The notes: generated by a model from the sequence alone, not told the origin. A DNA stretch of 64,000 bases from an uncultured Candidatus Saccharibacteria bacterium (GCA_964627095.1 CAZVKH010000001.1:8451-72450), one strand, 5' to 3'; numbered from the stretch's first letter, positions 884-57,287 are shown. A program made the numbers and translations.

Positions 884-961
884 TGGGGCGAATGATGGGG
901 ATCGAACCCACTACCTCCGGAACCACAACCCGGCGCTCTAACCAGATGAGCTACATTCGCC
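884..961 (-). tRNA. tRNA-His (GTG)
   Basis: The reverse complement folds as a cloverleaf with anticodon loop TTGTGGT. An extra 5' G(-1) opposes C73, the tRNA-His hallmark. CCA is encoded. Confidence 0.85.
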
Positions 962-1011
962 TTAAACAGGGGTGATTATAGCGCATTAGCGGCATAACAA
1001 CAAGCTGTACA

Positions 1012-1088
1012 TGGTGCCCCGGGTAGGACTCGAACCTACGGCCTTGAGCTTAGAAGTCTCCTGCTCTATCCAACTGAGCTACCAGGGC
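1012..1088 (-). tRNA. tRNA-Arg (TCT)
   Basis: Acceptor GCCCTGG/CCGGGGC, T arm GTAGG-TTCGAGT-CCTAC, anticodon loop CTTCTAA. Very similar to E. coli argU outside the anticodon stem, which here has G27.A43 and A31.G39 mismatches. Confidence 0.75.
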
Positions 1089-1096
1089 ACATATGA

Positions 1097-1171
1097 TGGT
1101 GCGGGATACCGGAGTCGAACCGGTGTCCAAAGTTTGGAAAACTTTTATATTAACCGCTATACGAATCCCGC
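1097..1171 (-). tRNA. tRNA-Gly (TCC)
   Basis: Acceptor GCGGGAT/ATCCCGC, anticodon arm AAAGT-TTTCCAA-ACTTT, T arm ACCGG-TTCGACT-CCGGT, CCA encoded. Confidence 0.85.
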
Positions 1172-1200: not shown

Positions 1201-3627
1201 CTAACCTCGCTCGTCGAGCGTAGCTAACAATTCGGGGGCATCCAGCAACAGTACCTGCCCTGGGCTGGCCGTACCGGCTAGCAGCCGTTGCGCCACGACG
1301 TTTTCTACCGACCGCTGCACAACTCGGCGCAAGGGTCGGGCACCCAAACGGGGGTCATAACCTTTGTCTACAAGTAGCGCCTTGGCGGCATCGGTCAGGC
1401 TAACCGAAATTTTACGGCTTGCCAGAGTCTTATTAATACTGCCCATTAACAGGTCGACCACTTGCATCAGTTCTGGCTTAGTAAGTGGACGGAATAATAT
1501 AATCTCATCAAAACGGTTAATGAACTCAGGACGGAAGACGTTAGCATTGATAAGCTCGTTGACCAGCTCGTCTTCGAACTGCTCGAGCTGCTGGCCCTGG
1601 TCTATGCGCGCCCGAATATTCTCGGCGCCGGCGTTACTGGTGGCAATAATAATTGAGTCTCTAAAACTGATCGGTTTATTCTGTGAATCACGCAACATAC
1701 CTTCGTCGAGTAATTGCAGAAGCAGGTTCAGTACGTTGGGGTGGGCCTTTTCAATTTCATCAAATAAGACCACACTAAAGGGTTGTTTGGCAATTTGGGC
1801 ACATAGACTATAGGGGTCGGTGGCGCCGGTCGCCAGCAATCGGTTGGTGTCGTCGGGGTGCGAAAACTCATTAAGGTCAATTCGCACAATGCGGTCTTGA
1901 CCACCAAAATAGACATCGGCTAACGCCTTAGAAAGCTCGGTTTTTCCAACCCCGGTTGGGCCCAAGAACAAGAAAGTACCAATCGGCTTCTTTTCGTTAC
2001 CAACGCCAGTGCGGGCGCGTCTTAAAGCATCGCTCACCAGCTTAACGGCGCGCGTTTGGTTGATCATTCGTTGGTGAATCTTGGCCTCTAAGTTCAAAAG
2101 GGTATCTTTTTCTTCAAAGGTATCGGCTGTCTGGACCTTAATATCGAAGGATTTTTCGACACCCTGCTGAACTGAGCGGGCCGTAACAAAATGCTGCTGC
2201 TCCGGAAAGCCACAGGCTACATCAAGCAGCTTGAGTGCCTTACCAGGGAAGGCCTGCTCATGGATGTAGCGTTCGGCTAACTTGTAGGCCTCTTTAATGG
2301 CTTGATTCATTAGCACGACGCCATGTTTACCTTCGATAATTAATGTTTGATCTTCGATTACCTGAATAGTCTCTTCTTCGTTCAGCGGATTGACCACCAC
2401 TCGGTTTAGCGACTGGGTAAAGCCTGGGCTGGTTTGGGCAATCCTTAGCCATTCCTGATTGTCTAATGCCAATATAATCTTAAGGGCACCGCCTTCTAGA
2501 ACTGGCATCAGTACGCTGGACAAGTCCACAGAACCAGTACCTTCCCTTAGGAATAGCTGGGCTTCATCCAAGAACAAGACAACGTTCTTGGCGTGAATCG
2601 CTTCGTTAAAAATATGGATTAATAGTTCTTCAAGCTCACCCTTACCCTTGGCATTAGCGATCAGGTGTGATGCATTCAGCTCAATTACCTGCTGGTAACG
2701 CAAGTTCTGGGGAACATTTTTGGAATCTTGCAGAAGCCGCTGGGCCATGGTGTAGACCAGGGTTGTTTTTCCAACCCCAACATCACCCACCAAGACAGCG
2801 TTACGGCGACCAGGTTGAGCTAGTAAATGGATAATCTGATCAATTGTTTGGGCACGGCTATCGACTGGACGACGCAAGATGCCACCAGATTGCAAACCGT
2901 TGGTTATATTAAAGCCAACGTGGTTCAAAACTGGTGCCCAACCAAAACTAAGATCGCGGCCGACACCCCCGTAATGCCGCTTTTCGCGTTGGCGGTCGCG
3001 CATCATCCGCATATGATGACGCCAACTTACACCTCCCAGCACATCGTCACTATCAAGCTGTAGCTGAGCCAGGTGATGCTCATAGTGCGGTATCGACATT
3101 ACCAACCCAGCCACCAGAACAGCCGAATCGATCCGATCACTCGAAGTTGCCCGCGCAACATTAAGAGCAGTCTGCCAAACAACCGATTCTTGGGAACTCT
3201 CGGTCGATGACAGATTCTGCAAAAACTCCGGACCAATCGCAAAACGGGACCCGTAGAAATAGGCGCCCTGTTCATTGGCGACAAGTTTAGCCAGTGCCTG
3301 CGGTGACATATTGGGCTGCATCTTGGCCAATAGGCGCCGGCTAAGGACATCACTGACATCGCTGACAGTTTCGATTGACGATATCGGCGGCAAGTCCTTA
3401 AGCTCGCCGTAGTACCAAAAAAGCGGCATGGCTAGAGTGCCACTTAGGGCAAATAGTATATGGGCAATCATCTGCTGCTCAAAAAACACCCCCCAGAACC
3501 AAAAGAATAATGACAATACCACCGCCAACCAAGTGATTAGCCGCACAGATTGGTTATCTAAAATCTTTCCAAAGCGGGCTTTGGTGGCACGTGGACTTTG
3601 CAAATTGCAGTGAATCGGTGGGTTCAT
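1201..3627 (-). CDS. Clp/Hsp100-family double-AAA+ ATPase with N-terminal membrane anchor
   Basis: Two Walker A sites (GDVGVGKTT, GPTGVGKTE) and two Walker B sites (VVLFLDEA, VVLFDEIEKAH). Clp-type C-terminus GARPLRRVVQ. Two hydrophobic helices near residues 30-75. Confidence 0.8.
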   Translation of the reverse strand: MNPPIHCNLQSPRATKARFGKILDNQSVRLITWLAVVLSLFFWFWGVFFEQQMIAHILFALSGTLAMPLFWYYGELKDLPPISSIETVSDVSDVLSRRLLAKMQPNMSPQALAKLVANEQGAYFYGSRFAIGPEFLQNLSSTESSQESVVWQTALNVARATSSDRIDSAVLVAGLVMSIPHYEHHLAQLQLDSDDVLGGVSWRHHMRMMRDRQREKRHYGGVGRDLSFGWAPVLNHVGFNITNGLQSGGILRRPVDSRAQTIDQIIHLLAQPGRRNAVLVGDVGVGKTTLVYTMAQRLLQDSKNVPQNLRYQQVIELNASHLIANAKGKGELEELLIHIFNEAIHAKNVVLFLDEAQLFLREGTGSVDLSSVLMPVLEGGALKIILALDNQEWLRIAQTSPGFTQSLNRVVVNPLNEEETIQVIEDQTLIIEGKHGVVLMNQAIKEAYKLAERYIHEQAFPGKALKLLDVACGFPEQQHFVTARSVQQGVEKSFDIKVQTADTFEEKDTLLNLEAKIHQRMINQTRAVKLVSDALRRARTGVGNEKKPIGTFLFLGPTGVGKTELSKALADVYFGGQDRIVRIDLNEFSHPDDTNRLLATGATDPYSLCAQIAKQPFSVVLFDEIEKAHPNVLNLLLQLLDEGMLRDSQNKPISFRDSIIIATSNAGAENIRARIDQGQQLEQFEDELVNELINANVFRPEFINRFDEIILFRPLTKPELMQVVDLLMGSINKTLASRKISVSLTDAAKALLVDKGYDPRLGARPLRRVVQRSVENVVAQRLLAGTASPGQVLLLDAPELLATLDERG

Positions 3628-4094
3628 TTACCTACCCCTACTACCATCATTACCAAGCTAATCGGGAAGGCGAATGGTGCCAACGGCCACAAAGCAATAA
3701 AGATAACCCCGCTCAAAAATGCCAATAAGGCTACAAATAAACCTGTGAAGATGATGAAGCTGCGCGCAAAAAACCCGACAAAGCGTGAGATAACGTTATC
3801 CAAAAGAGCGTGCATCTGTACATCAATCGACCCACCGGCTTGGCTATAAGTTTGCTTAAAGGGCGAGAACCAAGTTTGTGCCAACGCTAAAATCGAAAAG
3901 GTTTCGTTGCACCACTTGAGCCTATCAACAATCGCTTTTTGCATCGCCCATTGCCAACCAGCACCGTACCACCAGCGGAGTCCAAGAAGAATGACCATAA
4001 CCAGTATTGTATCAGATAGCGCCAGAGAGCACACTTCTTGATATACTATAGGAACATGAAAAAACTTATCCACTATTTCAAGACTTACAAACAC
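3624..4094 (-). CDS. small polytopic membrane protein, co-translated with the Clp-like ATPase
   Basis: Hydrophobic ORF whose stop overlaps the Clp ATG (ATGA at 3624-3627). The start is uncertain; the Met at 3998 would avoid overlap with the divergent ATPase gene. Confidence 0.5.
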   Translation of the reverse strand: MFVSLEIVDKFFHVPIVYQEVCSLALSDTILVMVILLGLRWWYGAGWQWAMQKAIVDRLKWCNETFSILALAQTWFSPFKQTYSQAGGSIDVQMHALLDNVISRFVGFFARSFIIFTGLFVALLAFLSGVIFIALWPLAPFAFPISLVMMVVGVGK

Positions 4095-5894
4095 TTGGGC
4101 ATCGTCATCCTAGCCATAATTATGGCCGGAGCACTCGACCTAGGTGGCTACGAACGCTATGCCAACATTGTTTTAGGCGTAACCGCTTCGTTATCGGTTA
4201 TTCCATTACTCCTAGGCATGGTTCAAGACTTACGGGACGGCCAGTACGGTGTTGATATCCTTGCCGCCACCGCCATCATTTCTTCGGTGGCTCTGGGTGA
4301 ATACTGGGCCGGTATTGTTGTCGTATTAATGTTAACTGGTGGTGAATCGCTCGAAGATTACGCCGAACACCGGGCTAAGACCGAACTCGATGCCTTGCTC
4401 AGCCGAGCACCAAAGAAAGCTCACATTCTAAAAGGCAATAAGGTTACTGATGTGCTGGCCAGCAAGGTTCAGACCAACGACAAGCTTATTATTAAGCCCG
4501 GTGAGTTGGTGCCAGTCGATGCCGTTGTCATCGAAGGTCATGCCAGTCTTGACGAATCTAGCCTAACCGGTGAAAGCTTGCCGGTCGAAAAACACGCTGG
4601 CGATGAGCTACTCAGTGGTTCGGTTAACCTGGATGGCGTTCTGACCGTTAAAGCACTGCGACCGGCCGCCGACAGTCAGTACGAACAAATCATTAAGCTG
4701 GTGCGCGGTGCAGCCAGTAACCAATCACCATTTGTACGCCTGGCCGATAAATATAGTATTCCCTTCACGATTGTTGCCTACACCATCGCTATTAGCGTCT
4801 GGGTGGCTTCAGGTGACCCAATTAGATTTTTGCAAGTAATTATTGTCGCCACCCCTTGCCCACTATTACTAGCGGCGCCAATCGCATTAATATCCGGAAT
4901 GAGCCGAGCAGCGCGTCACGGTATTATAATTAAAACTGGCTCGGCCTTAGAAAAACTGGCTCAAGTAAAAACTATTGCCCTCGACAAAACCGGTACGTTA
5001 ACGGTAGGTAAGCCAGTTGTTGGTTCGATCAAGACTTTCAATAAACATAGTCAAAATAGTGTCCTGTCAGCAGCGGCCAGCCTTGAACAGGATTCAAACC
5101 ACATTTTAGCCAAGGCCGTTGTTGCCAAAGCCAACCAGGCAAACATTAAGACCTCTAAGGTAAAGAGCCTGCGTGAAGAAGCTGGTTACGGGTTAAGCGG
5201 CCTGGTTAACCGACAGCCTGTTTTAGTTGGCAATGCCTCACTCTTGCTTAAGCACGACGTTGACCTACCCAAGAAACTCCAAGACATGGCGGCCACAACC
5301 GCCTTTGTCGCCATAGACGGCGTCCTGGCTGGTACAATTGAATTTACCGATGAAGTCCGCCCGGAGTCTAAGTCAACGCTTCAGAGGCTCCGTGATGCCG
5401 GTGTACAGCACATTCTTATGATCACCGGCGATAACGTTGCAAGCGCCAAAGCAATTGCCAAAAAAGTTGGCATAAAAGATGTTCGAGCCAACTGCTTACC
5501 AGCCGACAAATTAACTGCTGTCGAAAATATTACCAACCGACCAGTTGCTTTTGTGGGTGATGGCGTTAACGACGCACCAGTTCTGACAGCCTCGGATGTT
5601 GGCATTGCTCTGGGTGCACGTGGCTCAGCGGCGGCCAGTGAATCAGCTGATGTAGTAATTATGCTCGACGACTTTGGTCGAGTCGCCACATCTGTAGAAA
5701 TCGCCAAGCGCACCTTCTTTATTGCTAAGCAAAGTATCCTGATTGGCATTTTTATTAGCGTCGGCTTAATGTTAATTTTTGCCACCGGTAAATTTAAGCC
5801 TATTTATGGTGCTGCTCTGCAAGAAGTCGTTGACGTGGCGGTTATCTTTAATGCCTTACGTGCCCACGGTTCTTGGCGCAAAAAAACTAGCTAG
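4056..5894 (+). CDS. P1B-type heavy-metal P-type ATPase (TPCP transmembrane motif, no N-terminal metal-binding domain)
   Basis: Motifs TGES, DKTGTLT, GDGVNDAP and VATPCPLLLAAP. I take the ATG at 4056 rather than the TTG at 4038. Confidence 0.85.
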   Translation: MKKLIHYFKTYKHLGIVILAIIMAGALDLGGYERYANIVLGVTASLSVIPLLLGMVQDLRDGQYGVDILAATAIISSVALGEYWAGIVVVLMLTGGESLEDYAEHRAKTELDALLSRAPKKAHILKGNKVTDVLASKVQTNDKLIIKPGELVPVDAVVIEGHASLDESSLTGESLPVEKHAGDELLSGSVNLDGVLTVKALRPAADSQYEQIIKLVRGAASNQSPFVRLADKYSIPFTIVAYTIAISVWVASGDPIRFLQVIIVATPCPLLLAAPIALISGMSRAARHGIIIKTGSALEKLAQVKTIALDKTGTLTVGKPVVGSIKTFNKHSQNSVLSAAASLEQDSNHILAKAVVAKANQANIKTSKVKSLREEAGYGLSGLVNRQPVLVGNASLLLKHDVDLPKKLQDMAATTAFVAIDGVLAGTIEFTDEVRPESKSTLQRLRDAGVQHILMITGDNVASAKAIAKKVGIKDVRANCLPADKLTAVENITNRPVAFVGDGVNDAPVLTASDVGIALGARGSAAASESADVVIMLDDFGRVATSVEIAKRTFFIAKQSILIGIFISVGLMLIFATGKFKPIYGAALQEVVDVAVIFNALRAHGSWRKKTS

Positions 5895-6541
5895 AATAAG
5901 GCTGTCTGTAAAACTACAGTAATAAGCAGGGGTACAAACAAGTTGTCGGTTCCAGCTACGGCTAGATTCTCTATAGCGGTGGCGGCCAAGGGTAGCCAGA
6001 TAAGTAAAGGCACAAGTGGCCAGGTCAAAACAGTCCCGCTAAGTATCACTGTGCCGGTTACTATAGTTAACGATAACGTAAAGAACATCAAGGTCCCGAC
6101 CAATGTCTTGGTGTAGTTACGAATACTGTATTTATGGATAATCCCGTACTTGGTGCCTACTATCGCTGCCAGACCATCAGCCAGAGACAGATGTAAAATG
6201 GCGGCTGTAAAGACTATTGGTTCTGGTGTTAACAGAGCCGTGACGCCTATTCCAATTGGAAAAAACAACTCTCCCCAGGTGCGACGATTAACGCTGTGAA
6301 CAGCATGAAAAATATGCTGTTGCATCGATATTATAATGACAGCCAAAAAGGCCAGGCTCATAAACTCTATTTCGCGCCAGGTTAAAAAATATGGCCAAAA
6401 GGCCACAAAGGTACCAACACCAATATGCACAAACTTGCGCGCCGACTCACCGCGCATAACTTTTAGGCGCCACAGTAGCTCAGAAACTGCCAGTATCGTA
6501 AACACCCCAGTTAAAGCTAACAGGAGTGGCACGTACTGCAT
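5891..6541 (-). CDS. CTP-dependent polyprenol/dolichol/phytol-kinase-like membrane protein (CdsA superfamily)
   Basis: Polytopic protein with motifs RKFVHIGVG, ADGLAAIVGTKYG and ENLAVAGTDNLFVP, typical of the phytol/dolichol kinase family. Confidence 0.6.
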   Translation of the reverse strand: MQYVPLLLALTGVFTILAVSELLWRLKVMRGESARKFVHIGVGTFVAFWPYFLTWREIEFMSLAFLAVIIISMQQHIFHAVHSVNRRTWGELFFPIGIGVTALLTPEPIVFTAAILHLSLADGLAAIVGTKYGIIHKYSIRNYTKTLVGTLMFFTLSLTIVTGTVILSGTVLTWPLVPLLIWLPLAATAIENLAVAGTDNLFVPLLITVVLQTALF

Positions 6542-7516
6542 CTACTTATTGGGCCTAAGATCTAGGAAGTTAGCGCTTTGTAAGTTCTGTAACTGGCGTG
6601 GTGCAATGTCGAAGGTTGGTCGCTTAACATGAGTTGCAACCGAACGTCTCTGCAAGACTGGCTCAATAAAGGCCGGGCGGGGTGCTGGCTGCGGTGACAC
6701 CTTGGGGGCCGGTGGCAACTGTGATGGGTGTTTTCGGCGCTGTTCTTTGGCAGCAGCCTGTGCAGCGGCATACTTTTTGGCCGCCTTGGCCCGGCGATTT
6801 GCTTTTCGGTTAGCTAGATACACAAAGAATACCGACAAGTTATACAGCAGTATTATCGGTAGAGCGATTAGGAATTGCGTTAGTGGGTCGTAGGTAAATG
6901 GCAAAACCAGGGCCAGGGCCAAACTGCCGACAATAACGTGGCGCTCGTACTTAAGCAGCTTGCGCGGTGACATCGGCTTGATGTGGTTGATGAACAAAAT
7001 AAGCAAAGGCAACTGGAACAGTAATATAAACGTCAGTATGCAAGCCAGTGCGAAGTTAAGGTAGTCGTCGGCTGATATAAGCGGATTAACACCTGTGATT
7101 TCGACACCCTGAAAGAAATGCAAGGACATTGGTAAGGCGCCAAAATATGCAAAGGCGGCGCCGGCTACTCCTAGGGTCAAGGAAAGAAGCGTCACCATGG
7201 TAATAAGGCGGCGGGTGATTTTTTTACCAACAGCTGGTTCAATAAACGATATTATATTGTAGATTAGAGCCGGTATAGCCAGGGTTATGCCCAGGATAAA
7301 GCAGATCTTCATAATAAAGTTGAACCCACCAGCCGGCGTGGTGTAGTAAAGCTGCTGGTTGAGCGGGGCCGTCATAAAGACGATTAGCTGATCATGAAAC
7401 ATATAGGCCACACCGGCACCCACTAGCAATAGCAATGCTGGCCAGGTCAGCCGGCGACGCAGTTCCTGGACATGTCCAGAAAAAGTTAGCTTTGGTTCCA
7501 TGATCTGCCCATCCAT
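6542..7516 (-). CDS. tatC: Sec-independent translocase TatC with a ~90-aa basic Ala/Lys/Pro-rich C-terminal tail
   Basis: N-terminus ...HVQELRRRL plus a six-helix TatC-like core. The tail is KANRRAKAAKKYAAAQAAAKEQRRKHPSQLPPAPKVSPQPAPRP... Confidence 0.85.
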   Translation of the reverse strand: MDGQIMEPKLTFSGHVQELRRRLTWPALLLLVGAGVAYMFHDQLIVFMTAPLNQQLYYTTPAGGFNFIMKICFILGITLAIPALIYNIISFIEPAVGKKITRRLITMVTLLSLTLGVAGAAFAYFGALPMSLHFFQGVEITGVNPLISADDYLNFALACILTFILLFQLPLLILFINHIKPMSPRKLLKYERHVIVGSLALALVLPFTYDPLTQFLIALPIILLYNLSVFFVYLANRKANRRAKAAKKYAAAQAAAKEQRRKHPSQLPPAPKVSPQPAPRPAFIEPVLQRRSVATHVKRPTFDIAPRQLQNLQSANFLDLRPNK

Positions 7517-7543
7517 CTCGAAGACCTCTCGTTTAGTTATGGA

Positions 7544-7726
7544 CTAGGCTTTTTTGGTGGCTTTTGACTTAGTAGCAGGCTCTGGTTCGTCGGCATCTGC
7601 AAAACCTTTGCGGATTTCTTTAGCCGACTGACCGACACTGCGTGCTAGTTCTGGTAGCTTTTTAGCACCAAACAGCAACAAAACAATCAATAAAACGATA
7701 ATTAATTCGTCTGTTTTTCCAAACAT
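7544..7726 (-). CDS. tatA: Sec-independent translocase TatA/E
   Basis: 60 aa: a transmembrane helix, then FGAKKLPELARSVGQSAKEIRKGF. GGAGG lies 10 nt upstream of the ATG. Confidence 0.85.
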   Translation of the reverse strand: MFGKTDELIIVLLIVLLLFGAKKLPELARSVGQSAKEIRKGFADADEPEPATKSKATKKA

Positions 7727-19271: not shown

Positions 19272-20303
19272 TTATAGCAAGATTTCTTGTTCTTCAGGAG
19301 TGTCCGGAGTTTTACCTAGGTGCTTATAGGCCTTGCGTGTAACCTTGCGGCCGCGCGGAGTACGCTCCAGTAGCCCAATCTGCATAAGATAAGGTTCGTA
19401 AAAGTCTTCGATAGTAGAACGCTCCTCGGCTGTAAGGGCAGCTAATGTTTCGACACCAACTGGGCCACCTTGATAGTTGTCGATTATCGCCATTAAAAGC
19501 ATGCGGTCGGCTGGGTCAAGCCCCAGATCATCAACTTCTAACAGCCCCAGAGCTTGGGTACTAATTTCGGCGTCGATGATGCCGTCGCCATTAATGTCGG
19601 CGTAGTCACGTACTCGCTTTAGTAAACGATTGGCGATGCGCGGCGTAAGCCGAGCGCGTTTGGCTAGATCTTGGGCGGCGGCCTTATCAATCTTTATGCC
19701 AATGATCTTGGCGGCCCGTTCAATAATCTGCTGGACTTCGTCTGGAGTGTAGAACTCTAAGCGGTGTATCATGCCAAAACGATCACGTAGGGGAGCGGCC
19801 AAGGCACCAGTTCGGGTGGTGGCGCCAATAATTGTAAACTTGGGCAAATCTAAGCGCAGGCTGCGGGCGGTTGGGCCCTTACCAAGCATGATGTCGAGTT
19901 TGAAGTCTTCCATGGCACTGTAAAGAACCTCTTCGACCGAACGGTTCAAGCGGTGGATTTCGTCGATGAACAGAATATCGCCGTCCTGCAGGTTGGTTAG
20001 TAGGCTAGCCAAATCACCGGCCCGCTCCACAGCCGGGCCACTGGTGACGCGAATGTTGGCTCCCATTTCGTTGGCAATAACAGTTGCCATGGTCGTTTTG
20101 CCCAGGCCTGGTGGACCGTACAACAGAATATGGTCGAGCGGCTCTCCACGTTTGGTGGCGGCCGCAATCGCCAATTGCAAATTCTGTTTTAAACGCTTCT
20201 GCCCAATATAGTTGGTGAAGTCATGGGGGCGGAGTGTAATCTCTAACTCGGCCTCAATTGGGTCTTCTTCATCCTTGGTACTTACAATTCGTTCAATCGC
20301 CAT
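19272..20303 (-). CDS. ruvB: Holliday junction helicase RuvB
   Basis: [17 protein letters not shown] and a typical RuvB C-terminal winged helix. Confidence 0.95.
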
Positions 20304-39472: not shown

Positions 39473-41356
39473 CTAGTAAAGAGCGGCTTCGGTAGGCATC
39501 TTAGCGCCTTTTAAGATTTCGATGACTTCGGGGGCATCAACCGTCTCTTTTTCGAGCAAGGCTTTCTTGAGTGCTTCTAGCTTGTCTTTATTTGACTTAA
39601 TGACTAGCTTGGCGCGACGGGCGGCTTCGGATATCAATGACTCAATTTCATCGTCAATAATCTTGGCGGTGTCTTCGGAGTACTGACGTTCGTGCATTAG
39701 TTTGTCCATCATAATACCTTCATCGGTGTGGAAGACTTGGTTGCGCAGCTTACCGCTACCCATACCTTGGTTAACAATCATGTCGCGCGCTAGGTCGGCG
39801 GCGGCTGGGAGGTCTGAACCAGCTCCAGTGGTAACGTGATCAGGCCCGTACATAATTTCTTCGGCAATGCGGCCACCCAACATACGTGCCAGGACGTCTT
39901 TAAATTCAACAATGCTGTGATAACTTTTATCTTCGGGTGGGATAGACCAGGTGACACCGCCGGTACCGCCTCGGGGGATAATCGTGACCTTGTGAATAGG
40001 ATCGCTGTCCGGCAAGATGTGACCGACAATGGCGTGGCCGGCTTCGTGGTAGGCCGTCATTTCTTTTTCTTTTTCGCTCATAATCTTGCTCTTGCGCTCG
40101 GGGCCGATGGCAATCTTTTCAAAGGCACCAGTTACATCGGATTGAGTGATTTCTTTTTTGTTATGGCGGGCAGCCAAAATGGCGGCTTCGTTAGCAATAT
40201 TAGCCAAGTCAGCACCAGACGAACCGGCTGATTTTGCGGCTAGGGCATCGAGGTCAACCGACTTAGACAGTGGTTTCTTTTGGAAATGAACTTTTAGGAT
40301 AGCTTCACGGTCTTTGCGATCGGGCAAACCAATATTAACGCGCCGGTCAAACCGACCAGGTCGTAGAAGAGCTGGGTCAAGTACATCGGCGCGGTTGGTA
40401 GCGGCTAAGACAATGACGTTCTGGCCTTGTTCAAAGCCGTCCATTTCTACCAAGATCTGGTTAAGGGTTTGTTCACGTTCGTCGTGTCCACCACCCATAC
40501 CAGAACCACGCTTACGCCCCACGGCATCAATTTCATCAACAAAGATAATACATGGTGAGTTCTTTTTGGCTTTAGCAAATAAGTCACGGACGCGGCTGGC
40601 ACCGACACCAACAAACATTTCAACAAACTCAGAACCAGAAATACTAAAGAAGGGCACGTTGGCTTCGCCGGCGACAGCTCGGGCCAACATCGTCTTACCG
40701 GTACCAGGAGGCCCCACTAGTAATACGCCCTTAGGAATCTTGGCACCAACGCCTTCGAACTTTTTGGGGAACTTTAGGAATTCGACGACTTCTTCGAGGT
40801 CTTGTTTGGCTTCGTCGCTACCGGCAACTTTTTTAAAAGTTACCTTATCTTTTTCGTTGCCATACAAACGAGCCTTGCTCTTACCAAAGCTCATTGCTTG
40901 GTTACCCTGGCCTTGGGCGCTACGCAACATAAAGAACAGTACACCGCTAATTAATATGACTGGCAATATACCGCTTAATAGTGATACCCACAGGCTACCA
41001 GTATTAGGATCGGGTTGCGGGTTAACGGTTAGGCCTTCGACGTCCTTATTCAGCCCCTGGTCGTAAATGCTTGAGCCGGCTTCTTTATAGGACTGTTCGG
41101 TAGGCTTATCTTGATCTTTCTTAGTGACAAGCACTTCGTTGCCCTTGATAGTTAGCTCTTTAGTTTGGCCGGCATTGGCTTCTTCGACCACCTTAGACAA
41201 GGGAACTTTGGTGAGTTTGCTCGGTTGATTGTAGGCAGCAAAAACTACCATACCAAACAAAATAATTATGGCCACTAAAGCTAGGTTTTTGAGGCCACGC
41301 TTACCGGCGCTCGGCTTTTGGGGGCTACGAGAATTTCGAAAAGGTTTTTTATCCAT
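39473..41356 (-). CDS. ftsH: ATP-dependent zinc metalloprotease FtsH
   Basis: GPPGTGKT, the SRH region and the HEAGHA zinc site. Confidence 0.95.
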
Positions 41357-53869: not shown

Positions 53870-53944
53870 TGGTAGCGGGGGCAGGACTCGAACCTGCGAC
53901 CTCGTGGTTATGAGCCACGCGAGCTGCCACTGCTCCACCCCGCG
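53870..53944 (-). tRNA. initiator tRNA-fMet (CAT)
   Basis: Very close to E. coli tRNA-fMet (CGCGGGGTGGAGCAG...GGCTCATAACC...AGGTCG.AGGTTC). The 1:72 position is an unpaired C.U. The anticodon stem ends in GG/CC. Confidence 0.8.
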
Positions 53945-54024
53945 TCGAGTTGAGCAAGCTATAGCATACCAGATGAAAGCTACTTATACAACATCGGTGG
54001 GAAATGTGGTAGAGTATCTTCACT

Positions 54025-54726
54025 ATGACCGATATGCTCGCTCCTTCAGCCGAAGCCGAAAAATTGCCAACAGATGACCCGACAACCATACTAGCACTTG
54101 AAGCACGCGACTTATTACTCGCCGCCAGCCAAGCCGAACCGGGCAGCCCGGATGAGGTAGCCGCCCTAGAGGAAGCCAATAGTCGCTTTAGCGAGCTGGT
54201 TAGCGAAACCCAGGAATTCCTTACCAAATTTGCTCTGAGCCGCCCCCACCCCAGGCATTTTGATGTGCAAGAAGTAGTCCAGGAAACCTACGCCCGAGCC
54301 TATAAGGGTTTACATAATTTTAGGGGTGACGCCAAGTTTTCTACGTGGCTATTTTACGTTTTGCGCAGCTGTACTGATAACTACTGGAGACGCGAGGCAC
54401 GTCACAACAATCAGCCCCTACCCGAAGAAGACGGTTCAGATCCATCCTTGGTTGGTAGTATTGCCGTGGTGTCATCATTAGATACTGGCGAGGTCGACAG
54501 CTTTTTGGACTACAGTAGCCTTTCGCCGGAACTAGAAGCAATGCTGGCCACTTTAAGTCCCAAGCAACAACAAGCTATTCGTATGCATGACGTAATGGGA
54601 CAAACCACTAAAGAATGTGCCGCGCAACTAGGTGTTAGTGAAATTAGTTTTAAGATGAACGTACACCGGGCTCGCCATAACCTACGCCGCGAATTCCCCG
54701 ATGCCAGAAACTGGTTAGAAGAATAA
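54025..54726 (+). CDS. sigma-70-family (group 4/ECF-like) sigma factor with an acidic ~70-aa N-terminal extension
   Basis: Region 2 (ETYARAYKGLHNFRGDAKFSTWLFYV) and region 4 (QQQAIRMHDVMGQTTKECAAQLGVSEISFKMNVHRARHNLR). Confidence 0.8.
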   Translation: MTDMLAPSAEAEKLPTDDPTTILALEARDLLLAASQAEPGSPDEVAALEEANSRFSELVSETQEFLTKFALSRPHPRHFDVQEVVQETYARAYKGLHNFRGDAKFSTWLFYVLRSCTDNYWRREARHNNQPLPEEDGSDPSLVGSIAVVSSLDTGEVDSFLDYSSLSPELEAMLATLSPKQQQAIRMHDVMGQTTKECAAQLGVSEISFKMNVHRARHNLRREFPDARNWLEE

Positions 54727-54728
54727 TC

Positions 54729-54756
54729 TTGACAAATTAGCAACTTCATGTATAAT
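54729..54756 (+). promoter_or_regulatory. consensus sigma-70 promoter TTGACA-N16-TATAAT
   Basis: Exact hexamers read 3 nt after the sigma-factor stop codon. Confidence 0.6.
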
Positions 54757-54764
54757 ACTTAGTG

Positions 54765-54776
54765 TTGTCATGACAA
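54765..54776. promoter_or_regulatory. perfect 12-bp palindrome TTGTCATGACAA at the predicted transcription start
   Basis: Self-complementary 12-mer 9 nt downstream of the TATAAT. Candidate operator. Confidence 0.35.
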
Positions 54777-54814
54777 AACAAACAACAAAATAAAACAACA
54801 GGAAACTACACACA

Positions 54815-54898
54815 ATGAAATCACAACTCGCCTACGAGTTCGCCCAAACCCAAGATCAGGCAGTTTCACAATTTGACGATCTAATCTCATCTTTGTAA
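54815..54898 (+). CDS. 27-codon acidic ORF (MKSQLAYEFAQTQDQAVSQFDDLISSL)
   Basis: Hand-translated. AGGAA lies ~10 nt upstream in a CA-rich leader. Bracketed by the consensus promoter and a terminator. Confidence 0.35.
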   Translation: MKSQLAYEFAQTQDQAVSQFDDLISSL

Positions 54899-54923
54899 AC
54901 CTACTCGATCAAACTCCCATAAA

Positions 54924-54956
54924 AGAGCCCTTTAAGCGCAAAGGGTTCTTTTTATT
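54924..54956 (+). terminator. rho-independent terminator
   Basis: AGAGCCCTTT-AAGCGC-AAAGGGTTCT followed by TTTTATT. The one imperfect pair is G.U on the plus strand. Confidence 0.6.
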
Positions 54957-55034
54957 GCCGTTCGCCTTTCAGCTAGCTGGTCAACAGAGGCAAAACATGG
55001 TATATTCACTGCTGTCCATGTAACAAGTTTATAG

Positions 55035-55111
55035 GGCGGCGTAGCTCAGTTGGTTAGAGCACAGGACTCATAAGCCTGGGGTCACAAGTTCAAATCTTGT
55101 CGCCGCTACCA
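55035..55111 (+). tRNA. elongator tRNA-Met (CAT)
   Basis: Closely resembles E. coli metT (GTAGCTCAGTTGGTTAGAGCACA..ACTCATAA....GGGGTCACA.GTTC.AATC). Acceptor GGCGGCG/CGCCGCT. A31.G39 mismatch. Confidence 0.8.
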
Positions 55112-55167
55112 AACTTATTTGATATCGCTTGTGTTTAACCCCGTTTGGGGTAATAATAAACGGTATT

Positions 55168-55842
55168 ATGGATATGGATCTTAAACCCCCGACGCAGCCC
55201 AAATATCAGCTTAAGGAAACTCCGCCACCCGGCGCAACGCCACCTGAACCGCAGATGGACGACCCCTTTAAAGTTGATCCGCCACCACCCGAACTAACCG
55301 TACCTAAACCAAAGAAAAAACGCAGCGGCAAAGCTAAAAAGGCTTTGCTGGTTATTTTAGTATTGGCTCTGCTTGGTGCGGCCGGCTATGGTATTTACTA
55401 CTGGCAACACCAGCAAGTCGACAAACTAGCTAAAGAAAACCAGGCTCTAACCGCCCAACTAGCTGCCGCCAATAAAAAAGCTAGTGATGCCGAAGCCGAG
55501 AACGCCAAGCTTAGCGAAGCAGCCACCCCGCCAACGGCCGATACTTTGGTAATTACGGCTGCTACCGCCGATTGCCAGGCCGAGGTTGACCCAGCCACTA
55601 AGAAGGCTTTGGTATACACCCAAGGCACGCAAGGCACTGACAAAAAGAAAGTGCTGTATTCGACTGATAAGACCTTTGCCAAGGTTAGCGCTACCTGTGC
55701 TGCCACCGCTAACGCCACCGAGCCAGCCACGCTGTACTATGCTAAATTAGCCGGTACTACCTGGACGGTCATCTATGCTGACACCGCCGAGCCCGACGCC
55801 GACGTAACTGCTTTGTACGCCATCCCAACTGAATTCAAATAA
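55168..55842 (+). CDS. hypothetical bitopic protein (Pro-rich N-terminus, transmembrane helix, coiled coil, C-terminal domain)
   Basis: ORF from the ATG at 55168. KKKRSGKAKK then a transmembrane helix. No motif recognised. Confidence 0.5.
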   Translation: MDMDLKPPTQPKYQLKETPPPGATPPEPQMDDPFKVDPPPPELTVPKPKKKRSGKAKKALLVILVLALLGAAGYGIYYWQHQQVDKLAKENQALTAQLAAANKKASDAEAENAKLSEAATPPTADTLVITAATADCQAEVDPATKKALVYTQGTQGTDKKKVLYSTDKTFAKVSATCAATANATEPATLYYAKLAGTTWTVIYADTAEPDADVTALYAIPTEFK

Positions 55843-55843
55843 A

Positions 55844-55869
55844 AGAACCGGCCTCTGGAAGCCGGTTCT
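55844..55869. terminator. bidirectional terminator hairpin AGAACCGGC/GCCGGTTCT
   Basis: Perfect 9-bp stem between convergent genes, flanked by A-rich and T-rich runs. Confidence 0.5.
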
Positions 55870-55891
55870 TAATTTTACGTTAACTCTTTAA

Positions 55892-56296
55892 TTAAGAGTC
55901 TTCGCGTAGCTCGCCACCATGAACGATCAATGCGTAAAGCACCAATACGTCGATCAGGATGGCAGCGAGTGACCAGACTGGGTAGGCTGGAATAAACGCC
56001 ATGCTAGTCAGCAATGATACAGTTGTCACGATAACGGCAACGATGCGACCAAACAAGTGGCCCGAAAGTACCGAGAAACCAGCGAACAATAGAATCATCG
56101 CCAAAACTAGTTGACCCCAGCCCCAAGCTGTAAAGTTAAAGACTGCTAGGTGCTGTTCGGTAACAACGTAGAATGAACTACGAGTTAATGAAACGATGCC
56201 CAGGAATGCCTCGAAAAAGGCGCGCACGATCAGAAGTATACCGGCAAAGTATACCCAGCCGACCCATCCAGATGGTTGTGTTGTTGGTTTAGCCAT
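55892..56296 (-). CDS. four-helix membrane protein (DUF7144-like)
   Basis: GWVGWVYFAGILLI... plus three further helices. Confidence 0.5.
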   Translation of the reverse strand: MAKPTTQPSGWVGWVYFAGILLIVRAFFEAFLGIVSLTRSSFYVVTEQHLAVFNFTAWGWGQLVLAMILLFAGFSVLSGHLFGRIVAVIVTTVSLLTSMAFIPAYPVWSLAAILIDVLVLYALIVHGGELREDS

Positions 56297-56361
56297 AAAA
56301 GCCCTCCTTAGTTGATGATTAAATCATCTCGCTTACTGGAATTTTTGTCAAGGAAGTTGCC

Positions 56362-56676
56362 TTAACGCTTATGCTTTTCAGTATGAGATTCGGCACGGGC
56401 TTGCATTTTTTGACCACGCTTCTTTACAAAGGCGTTTATAAAGGCACCAAAAATAGCAATTCCTAGCAGAATGTAGATGGTCGTAAATAACTTACCGGCA
56501 TCGGTTTTGGGCGTAATGTCGCCATACCCAACAGTGGTTAGGGTGACGATGCAAAAATAGTAGGCATCGACCCAGCCCCACTTTTCGACAAAGTGATAGA
56601 AAGCCATGCCAACCCCCAACACTGCGAAAGTAATGGTTAGTAGTAGCCTGTACATATAGCGGTCAAGTGGGTTCAT
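56362..56676 (-). CDS. minimal two-TM potassium channel (104 aa)
   Basis: TM1, pore helix, selectivity filter TTVGYGD, then TM2. No cytoplasmic regulatory domain. Confidence 0.8.
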   Translation of the reverse strand: MNPLDRYMYRLLLTITFAVLGVGMAFYHFVEKWGWVDAYYFCIVTLTTVGYGDITPKTDAGKLFTTIYILLGIAIFGAFINAFVKKRGQKMQARAESHTEKHKR

Positions 56677-56691
56677 TGGTTTCTCCTGTAA

Positions 56692-57150
56692 TTATTTATC
56701 TGTCTGGCGATGTTGGAAAAAGTCCATCCAGGCTTGAAAGTTGCGCTGGAAAGTCGATACTACCACAGCTGGCTGAGCGGCCTTATTTTGCTCTTTGGAC
56801 ATATCAACAGTGTTGGCCAGCGCCACCCGCTTGGGCACCAAAACCAGTTTTTCATTAGGGGCGGCCTTGCCGAACTGGCGCCGGGCGGCTAGTTCCAGGA
56901 ATTGGTTGGTATTGTAGTACTGATTGGCTAGCTTTTGGTTATTATTCTGGAGATCCAGCACCTGGTTTTCTTGCTGTATAGCCGAGATTTGCTTTTGCAG
57001 GCCGTAGTTAGTCTGAATAGCCGAGATTGTACTCCAGCTTACTAACAGGGCAATGCCGGCAAAGATTAAAAGCCCCACCACGCGCACGTCTTGGAGTTGC
57101 TTAAAATAGGGATGGTTTTGGATATTTTTGATTTTACTGTTCATGAACAT
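56692..57150 (-). CDS. FtsB/DivIC-type septum formation initiator
   Basis: Single transmembrane helix, a coiled coil and the ...ELAARRQFG......E tail typical of the family. Confidence 0.65.
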   Translation of the reverse strand: MFMNSKIKNIQNHPYFKQLQDVRVVGLLIFAGIALLVSWSTISAIQTNYGLQKQISAIQQENQVLDLQNNNQKLANQYYNTNQFLELAARRQFGKAAPNEKLVLVPKRVALANTVDMSKEQNKAAQPAVVVSTFQRNFQAWMDFFQHRQTDK

Positions 57151-57211
57151 TTTTATTATACAATCCTTTGCCCAAAATCTGCTATACTCACTCTGTTAAT
57201 ACCACGACCAC

Positions 57212-57287
57212 GGGGGTGTAGCTCATCGGTCAGAGCAGGCGGCTCATAACCGCTTGGTAGATGGTTCAACTCCATCCACCCCCACCA
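57212..57287 (+). tRNA. tRNA with CAT anticodon, probably tRNA-Ile2 (lysidine substrate)
   Basis: Anticodon arm and variable region (GAGCAGGCGGCTCATAACCGCTTGGT) nearly match E. coli ileX (GAGCAGGCGACTCATAATCGCTTGGT). The cloverleaf is sound; the identity is inferred. Confidence 0.75.

Follow-up and report, generated by a model that had tools for sequence, protein, structure and literature searches.

The 64,000-nucleotide stretch of DNA analysed here (hereafter the window; CAZVKH010000001.1:8451-72450), from an uncultured Candidatus Saccharibacteria bacterium, encodes on its minus strand an 808-amino-acid (aa) ATPase of the Hsp100/Clp superfamily with two AAA+ modules (D1 and D2) and, immediately upstream of it, a 124-aa membrane protein, which we refer to as the partner. 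Hsp100/Clp ATPases are textbook soluble machines, and the ATP-driven handling of bacterial membrane proteins is assigned almost entirely to FtsH. The two genes described here very probably specify a two-part, membrane-integrated and ClpP-independent Hsp100-like ATPase; a search of the full-text literature returned no description of a membrane-anchored Hsp100 or of its partner.

The gene pair and its linkage

The start codon of the ATPase is taken from AAATGA in the junction sequence GGT AAA TGA, both read directly in the window, and falls on the stop codon of the upstream membrane-protein gene at 3624-3627, an ATGA overlap that had already been called in a first-pass annotation of the locus made from the sequence alone. 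Through this overlap, the partner is predicted to be made in step with the ATPase. To follow the arrangement across genomes, we collected 75 ATPase-side loci: exact look-ups gave five, and a scan that took a single genome for each GTDB species gave 70, almost all of them titled Saccharibacteria or Saccharimonadia. Of these loci, 71 extend upstream of the ATPase gene, and each of the 71 has a partner homologue immediately upstream on the same strand, with a 4-nt NTGA overlap in 60 and a 1-nt TAATG overlap in 6. The pairing is reciprocal: in an independent metagenome collection, the ATPase is encoded directly downstream of the partner in 72 of 72 loci with enough downstream DNA (8 more end too early). 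The co-occurrence that the first-pass annotation had put forward as a check is thus found from both sides, and also as natural fusions. In 14 distant ATPase representatives, the first ~120 residues are matched by a partner profile (E 1e-9 to 1e-19). These fused proteins align colinearly with the partner plus the ATPase; on independent contigs, their genes are continuous open reading frames (ORFs) that lack a separate partner gene ahead of them. Judged from this conservation, the two genes form a fixed unit.

The start of the partner is fixed by five syntenic homologues of 118-125 aa, aligned from MxxxLxLRWWYG, and an identical 124-aa record is on file (P0121). Most of the 45 partner homologues in the databases have 123-127 aa, and the few of 85-119 aa cover part of the query. 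A 156-aa version initiated at GTG 4094 was rejected as an over-extension into the divergently oriented P-type ATPase gene, the homologues being of ~124 aa. The first-pass annotation had described the upstream product as a polytopic protein of three to four helices; hydropathy analysis instead gives an amphipathic N-terminal half (N-half) followed by one hydrophobic hairpin, with Kyte-Doolittle 15-mer means of up to 2.76 in the hairpin. The conserved motifs of the N-half, LRWWYGAGW and FSxxxLxxTxFxPFKQT, are also present in the fused homologues. Neither the partner nor the fused N-terminal module belongs to a Pfam or NCBIfam family, the matches to DUF2070 and Tmpp129 being insignificant.

Table 1. 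Coordinates of the gene pair and of its parts in the 64,000-nucleotide window (TM, transmembrane).
Feature	Position	Strand	Description	Basis
ATPase gene	1201..3627	-	808-aa, predicted membrane-anchored Hsp100/Clp-like double-ring AAA+ ATPase	Pfam, NCBIfam, alignments
Partner gene	3624..3998	-	124-aa membrane protein; ATG 3998, stop TGA 3624-3626	Homologue alignment
ATGA overlap	3624..3627	-	ATPase start codon on partner stop codon	Read directly
Partner residues 1-72	3783..3998	-	Amphipathic, aromatic, basic N-half	Hydropathy, conservation
Partner residues 73-122	3633..3782	-	~50-residue hydrophobic hairpin with central WPLAP kink	Kyte-Doolittle
ATPase residues 1-29	3541..3627	-	Cytoplasmic (predicted) basic tail RAxKARF	Lysine plus arginine counts, conservation
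ATPase TM helix 1, residues 30-49	3481..3540	-		Hydropathy 2.0, AlphaFold2
ATPase TM helix 2, residues 53-72, then WYYGEL	3412..3471	-		Hydropathy, AlphaFold2
ATPase residues 78-218	2974..3396	-	Putative divergent all-helical Clp_N-like domain	Family profile matches
ATPase residues 220-232, GG(I/V)GRD(L/W)xFG(W/Y)(A/T)P	2932..2970	-	Family-specific motif before D1	
D1 AAA+ module and lid, residues 255-507	2107..2865	-		Pfam, alignments
D1 pore-1 loop equivalent, residues 325-331, NAKGKGE	2635..2655	-		ClpB/ClpC alignment
D2 AAA+ module and D2-small, residues 547-792	1252..1989	-		Pfam, conservation
D2 pore-1 loop equivalent, residues 599-611, ATGATDPYSLCAQ	1795..1833	-		Alignment, conservation
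ATPase residues 665-699	1531..1635	-	Site of the ClpP-docking loop in ClpA/C/X; no docking tripeptide here	
Candidate weak sigma-70-like promoter TGGATA-16-TATAGT	4045..4072	-	Upstream of partner gene; 9/12 matches	

An Hsp100-type ATPase with a predicted membrane anchor

Pfam divides the ATPase into AAA (residues 278-382), AAA_lid_9 (417-507), AAA_2 (547-709) and ClpB_D2-small (715-792), and the protein thus has both the Hsp100-specific domains (AAA_lid_9 and ClpB_D2-small) and the Hsp100 fold. None of the NCBIfam models of named Clp proteins reaches its cut-off on this sequence: ClpB (TIGR03346) scores 426 bits against a cut-off of 1232, ClpA (TIGR02639) 372 bits against 993, in one colinear stretch (142-791 versus 77-728), and the ClpG and ClpK models 325-330 bits against 1900. 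Because of these Pfam and NCBIfam scores, we assign the ATPase to the Hsp100/Clp superfamily but to no named equivalog. Homologues that bear a name are labelled Saccharibacteria or Saccharimonadales 'ClpC', and the databases otherwise list them as AAA family ATPases. The UVR motif (PF02151) is not matched by Pfam, and Peptidase_M41 is absent among the Pfam matches.

For conservation within the close family, we used the 120 best homologues of the ATPase, which share 59-93% identity and nearly all have 804-819 aa. The ORF of the 808-aa double-AAA+ protein was confirmed, and both Walker A/B pairs noted in the first-pass annotation are conserved in all 120 members: G281xxGxGKT (GDVGVGKT) and FLDE, with D354-E355, in D1, and G556PTGVGKT and FDEIE, with D623-E624, in D2. 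Sensor-1 (N665), the Arg finger (R705, in FINRFDE) and sensor-2 (GARPLRR) of D2 are invariant in the same set. The Arg-finger region of D1 is non-canonical, with the RR replaced and an invariant N408-R409 two residues further on. In the wider family, made up of the 150 best matches (30-56% identity) from an exhaustive search of 1.84 billion cluster representatives, the D2 catalytic motifs are near-invariant and the D1 Walker A/B motifs are often degenerate (GKRT, D-N/D-D). By its motifs, D2 is predicted to be catalytically complete and D1 degenerate, with the nucleotide-binding motifs kept.

The best sequence matches of the ATPase are ClpB and Hsp104, and its D2 is 44% identical to the NBD2 of Thermus thermophilus ClpB. 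The alignment with the latter falls into two blocks (234-475/153-392 and 506-796/545-838), between which the 30 residues 476-505 of the ATPase stand opposite the 152 residues 393-544 of ClpB, that is, the M-domain; accordingly, the spacing from Walker A to Walker A is 275 residues, compared with ~397 in T. thermophilus ClpB. ClpA aligns in a single colinear block (246-793 against 181-732), and relative to Bacillus subtilis ClpC the D1-D2 stretch is ~57 residues shorter. The docking tripeptide for ClpP, sought as [ILVM]G[FLM], was found in the loop region of none of the 120 family members and in one of 136 distant representatives (a chance LGL), and the alignment with B. subtilis ClpC places gaps exactly opposite the VGF loop. 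The failure of the first-pass annotation to find either an IGF/IGL-type docking tripeptide or a long ClpB-type middle domain is therefore upheld by proper alignment.

The two strongly hydrophobic helices reported at the N-terminus are a conserved trait. Every homologue sampled, down to 59% identity, begins with the basic RAxKARF tail, followed by a helix at ~30-49, a loop of 3-4 residues, a helix at ~53-72 and WYYGEL; R13, R29, W71, G74 and L76 are invariant among 79 aligned ATPase sequences. The tail contains on average 5.8 lysine and arginine residues and the inter-helix loop 0.12 (120 members), a bias that follows the positive-inside pattern and predicts an N-in, C-in topology. AlphaFold2, run on the family alignment (mean predicted local distance difference test score, pLDDT, of 80), models helices at 26-50 and 53-76 with pLDDT of ~90, then an all-helical domain at 97-218, with low pLDDT at 219-225. 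The possibility, raised as a check, that translation truly starts at a methionine near residue 103 fails on the conservation of the N-terminus and on the position of the start codon on the partner stop codon in 66 of 71 loci. Hydrophobic segments precede D1 also in the wider family, in 134 of the 140 full-length 50%-cluster representatives among the best 150 matches.

The domain that follows the anchor is a putative, divergent Clp_N-like domain, an assignment made because the family profile matches the N-domains of Clp proteins. A profile of residues 78-222 built from 15 diverse members retrieved from the PDB the N-domain of Hsp104 (E 1.6e-4), a Clp_N protein (E 1.2e-3), the N-domain of HSP101 (E 6.8e-3) and those of ClpA and ClpB (E 0.04). 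The window ATPase has no direct Pfam match to Clp_N (PF02861), and one of the 15 members does (E 1.1e-5). Between this domain and D1 lies a motif, GGIGRD(W/L)xxG(Y/W)(T/A)P, that is found family-wide and is absent from canonical Clp proteins; among the close homologues, its residues G220, G221, G223, R224, D225, G229, W230 and P232 are invariant.

Comparison of the split and fused forms locates the difference between them within the anchor. The split ATPase has an extra inserted block, consisting of the initiator Met, the basic tail and TM helix 1; this helix is missing from the natural fusions, and TM helix 2 aligns with the single helix that follows the partner domain. In the model of the fusion P0213 (L076, 4001-6673), helices occupy residues 55-102, 104-121 and 125-151; the first two correspond to the hydrophobic hairpin of the partner, and the third is the one hydrophobic helix after the partner domain, where the fusion P0212 has none. 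A homology search with the N-terminal 340 aa of P0213 gave no matches, its hydrophobic words having probably swamped the search.

Genomic surroundings

The window also encodes a full-length FtsH (39473-41356, minus strand; TIGR01241, 774 bits versus a cut-off of 600), and hence the ATPase is no replacement for it. No ClpP or ClpX gene was found in the 64 kb; the search for ClpX gave a weak AAA+ cross-match to RuvB (19272-20303, minus strand; NF000868, 502 bits). A reading of the ATPase as part of an anti-phage defence system seems unlikely: the PADLOC model of DolB, the ClpB-like protein that in Dodola islands is encoded beside DolA, matches with E 2.6e-30, over residues 486-672 only, within the AAA_2 domain, and this match, like those of PDC-M37B and TRIP13, is a generic AAA-domain match. 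The conservation of the ATPase gene as a single copy across Saccharibacteria likewise speaks against a defence island.

Upstream of the pair and divergent from it, with ~57 bp between the start codons, lies a gene for a heavy-metal P1B-type ATPase (4056-5894, plus strand; TIGR01525, 536 bits), a homologue of which neighbours the pair in 24 of 75 loci, among closer relatives only. The next gene along (5891-6541, minus strand) encodes a polytopic membrane protein of 216 aa that neither Pfam nor NCBIfam matches; in 34 of 75 loci, again among closer relatives only, a homologue is encoded no more than 4 kb upstream of the pair, often with a VIT1-family or P-type ATPase gene in between. TatC-like (324 aa) and TatA-like (60 aa) ORFs, so named from sequence only, occupy 6542-7726 on the same strand as the pair, and, in the flanking DNA retrieved, 6 loci have a homologue of the TatC-like ORF close to the pair. 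The fused genes have other neighbours. They directly follow rpoD, with a gap of 45-62 nt, in L078 (3734-7691) and L079 (1980-7739; dnaG-rpoD), and in L076 the fused gene comes after infC-rpmI-rplT and has lspA, lgt and a gene for signal peptidase I in its vicinity. Beyond the partner itself, no recurring functional neighbour was found in the split or fused loci examined.

Sites resembling the candidate promoter of the pair (Table 1) are no more numerous in the region than expected from shuffled sequence. Downstream, genes for tRNA-Gly, tRNA-Arg and tRNA-His (884-1171, minus strand) begin ~30 nt past the ATPase stop codon and may be co-transcribed with the pair; a hairpin with a 9-bp stem at 853-874 is terminator-like on both strands. 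Elsewhere in the window, three tRNA-Met (CAT) genes are clustered within 3.5 kb (53870-57287), on both strands.

Possible mode of action and relation to known systems

The best explanation of the locus as a whole, which we advance tentatively, is a membrane-integrated Hsp100 machine that acts on polypeptides from the membrane side. Both gene products very probably form one integral-membrane Hsp100/Clp-type AAA+ machine of two polypeptides, to which the partner adds its amphipathic N-half and a second hydrophobic hairpin, elements that in distant relatives form the N-terminal domain of the same chain. The complex would assemble as a hexamer like other Hsp100s. Because the anchor lies ahead of the N-domain, the ring is predicted to turn its N-domain/D1 entrance towards the membrane, the orientation also found in FtsH and Msp1, and ~24 helices (6 x 2 + 6 x 2) would surround this entrance. 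D2 would act as the motor and D1 would serve chiefly for assembly or regulation, with ATP hydrolysis in D2 pulling on or remodelling polypeptide segments presented from the membrane side. Such a machine could extract membrane or membrane-proximal proteins or control their quality, its products being released to the cytoplasm rather than to ClpP and its action being independent of DnaK; no coupling to Hsp70 is expected, because the ATPase lacks an M-domain. A mode of action in which the ring pulls polypeptide into itself or through its pore is possible, yet doubtful. Of the first-pass proposal of a membrane-localised disaggregase or extractase working with a small partner, the membrane localisation and the link to the partner have stood, whereas the unfoldase, disaggregase or extractase activity stays hypothetical, the pore loops being non-canonical.

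These loops weigh against a threading machine, since to our knowledge every well-studied polypeptide-threading AAA+ ring carries an aromatic pore-1 residue. The canonical aromatic pore-1 loops, KYRG in D1 and GYVG in D2, are both lacking in the ATPase. The D1 loop reads K[G/A]RG instead of KYRG, with NAKGKGE where ClpB has GAKYRGE; residue 328 is glycine in 88 of the 120 close homologues and alanine in 17, and none of the four commonest residues at this position is aromatic. The D2 loop, GAxDPYSLCAQ, is five residues shorter than that of ClpB, with D604, Y606, L608 and C609 invariant among the 120. Y606 is its only conserved aromatic residue and, in the HMMER alignment, lies two residues before the next helix and not at the position of GYVG; HMMER places the gap over PPGYV, and GAxDPYS can also be read in register with GAPPGYV. 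Both loops are hypervariable in the wider family: among 136 of its representatives, the D1 loop is aromatic in nine, and any aromatic residue occurs in the D2 loop (17-30 residues in the segment compared) in 57. As to cysteines, C609 of the D2 loop (YSLCAQ) is invariant, and C30 of the partner (3909-3911; WCNETFS) is conserved in its closest homologues only, being replaced in more distant syntenic partners.

Two further observations count against the proposed machine, and the first concerns its topology. The number of hydrophobic helices is four in the split form, three in most fusions and two in P0212. If three helices truly crossed the membrane, the N-half of the partner would be on one side and the AAA+ rings on the other; hence either one helix is re-entrant or the partner N-half lies outside the cell. 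The second comes from a cultured relative, Southlakia epibionticum ML1, whose SEML1_0700 is an 'AAA family ATPase' with Pfam domains at 276-381, 544-706 and 713-792, nearly the coordinates of the window ATPase, and whose SEML1_0701, the overlapping upstream gene, encodes a 127-aa hypothetical protein (PMC10633639 Table S1). From the domain coordinates and gene order, the two are probable orthologues of the pair. In transposon sequencing (Tn-seq), both genes were called NE, NE and GD over three time points (PMC10633639), and the reads fell from 4124 to 1638 for SEML1_0700 and from 258 to 51 for SEML1_0701 (PMC10633639 Table S1). The two genes are thus non-essential, with a mild, late fitness cost in co-culture; the growth defects of the two match, however, and this similarity speaks for the link between ATPase and partner.

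The main rival, which we regard as unlikely, is a non-threading conformational machine, in which the D2 cycle would be passed via D1 and the N-domain to the membrane module and would open, close or reshape something in the bilayer, be it a channel, a groove like that of an insertase or a partner complex, similarly to Torsin with LAP1/LULL1 or to Bcs1; no polypeptide would enter the axial pore. Such a machine would explain why the pore-1 loops are non-canonical here and unconserved in the wider family while the D2 catalytic motifs are near-invariant, and why family-wide conservation extends to the membrane module and to the junction motif GGIGRD..G(Y/W)(T/A)P. It is harder to reconcile with an Arg finger (R705) and sensor-2 that, unlike those of Torsin, are intact, with a D2 loop that is invariant within Saccharibacteria and includes a tyrosine, as would be expected of a pore contact surface, and with a Clp_N-like domain, which binds substrate or adaptor in all characterised Hsp100s.

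The mild, stress-type fitness phenotype in the Tn-seq data, the lack of a ClpP loop and the lack of an M-domain, and with it of Hsp70 coupling, would also suit a membrane-tethered, stand-alone and DnaK-independent disaggregase akin to ClpG or ClpL, which would act close to the membrane, dissolving aggregated cytosolic or nascent secretory proteins, and for which the partner would be an extra anchor only. The ClpG and ClpK models do score 325-330 bits, but this is far under their cut-offs of 1900; the known stand-alone disaggregases keep both pore-loop tyrosines, whereas D1 here has none and the D2 loop is non-canonical; and a mere anchor would not need a conserved second membrane protein that is encoded in a 4-nt overlap and fused in other lineages. 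We consider this alternative improbable.

There is a similarly small chance that six ATPase hairpins and six partners form a collar that is a protein-conducting or lateral-gate structure over a retro-translocation or import motor. If so, the machine might be, with equally low probability, the bacterial equivalent of a dislocation system of the ERAD/Msp1 type or of the motors at the chloroplast TIC, with a non-aromatic grip on the substrate, and it would be widespread in the ultra-small Patescibacteria. The chances are slimmer still for a dedicated translocation motor, in which the 24-helix collar would be the protein-conducting channel and the ring would pull polypeptides inward across the membrane, as Hsp93/ClpC or Ycf2-FtsHi do at the chloroplast TIC, or as a reversed HSP101 would at PTEX. 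The predicted geometry would suit a motor that sits on the inner side of the membrane and pulls, and the hosts are episymbionts dependent on host-derived material; on the other hand, no evidence points to the helices forming a pore, the pore-loop weakness applies here just as it does to the proposed extraction machine, the pair is non-essential in co-culture, and no secretion or uptake partner recurs in the gene neighbourhoods.

A ClpP-coupled ClpC, as the source annotations would have it, could draw on the colinearity with ClpA and on the presence of ClpP in related cultured Saccharibacteria, but was rejected as very improbable on the sub-cut-off NCBIfam scores (ClpA, 372 versus 993 bits; ClpB, 426 versus 1232 bits), the alignment gaps, the 0/120 count of docking tripeptides, the lack of a UVR motif or M-domain, and the separate canonical ClpC (two PF02861 repeats and a PF02151 UVR motif) that S. 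epibionticum encodes along with ClpP. An annotation artefact, in which the true start at the internal Met near residue 103 would yield a soluble protein, has a negligible probability, given that residues 1-76 show the same length and a conserved sequence in all 120 homologues, that the start lies on the partner stop in 66/71 loci and that the region is inside a continuous ORF in the fusions.

The pair thus represents a large family that would place an Hsp100 double ring in the membrane, with the membrane module being either a coupled subunit or a fused domain, and that does so without the ClpP loop, the Hsp70-coupling M-domain or the canonical pore tyrosines. Should the machine extract or move polypeptides, Patescibacteria would have a second pathway for membrane proteostasis, or for transport, that needs no protease; a machine that does not thread would be an example from bacteria of an Hsp100-type ring working on another principle and would bear on the unsolved mechanism of Torsin. 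The pair can be tested now, as S. epibionticum is open to genetic manipulation and insertions are tolerated in either gene.

Among known systems, ClpA is soluble, docks ClpP by its IGL loop and has KYRG and GYVG pore loops, whereas the window ATPase has a predicted membrane hairpin, a dedicated partner, no docking tripeptide and non-canonical pore loops. ClpB and Hsp104 are the closest in sequence and likewise lack the ClpP loop, but the window ATPase differs from them in being membrane-anchored, in having no M-domain and in the absence of the pore tyrosine from D1. The nearest functional analogy is with FtsH, a membrane-anchored AAA+ hexamer with its entrance toward the membrane that acts on membrane proteins; FtsH, however, has one classic-clade ring and an M41 zinc protease, compared with two Hsp100-type rings and no protease domain here. 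The likeness to Msp1/ATAD1 is one of geometry only (an N-terminal TM anchor, no attached protease and the entrance at the membrane), as Msp1 is a single-ring, classic-clade eukaryotic protein that has one TM helix and aromatic pore loops and does not depend on an obligate partner in the membrane. Torsin has its Arg finger supplied by LAP1 or LULL1, whereas the window ATPase keeps R705 and sensor-2 and has two rings, and its partner has no AAA-like fold. HSP101 in PTEX and Hsp93/ClpC at TIC are soluble, carry canonical pore loops and are recruited to a separate channel; in PTEX, it is the D2 exit of HSP101 that faces the pore, whereas the anchor of the window ATPase is covalent and N-terminal. 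Taken together, the fold and the engine are those of Hsp100; the integration into the membrane, the dedicated membrane module in its split or fused form and the absence of canonical pore loops are not.

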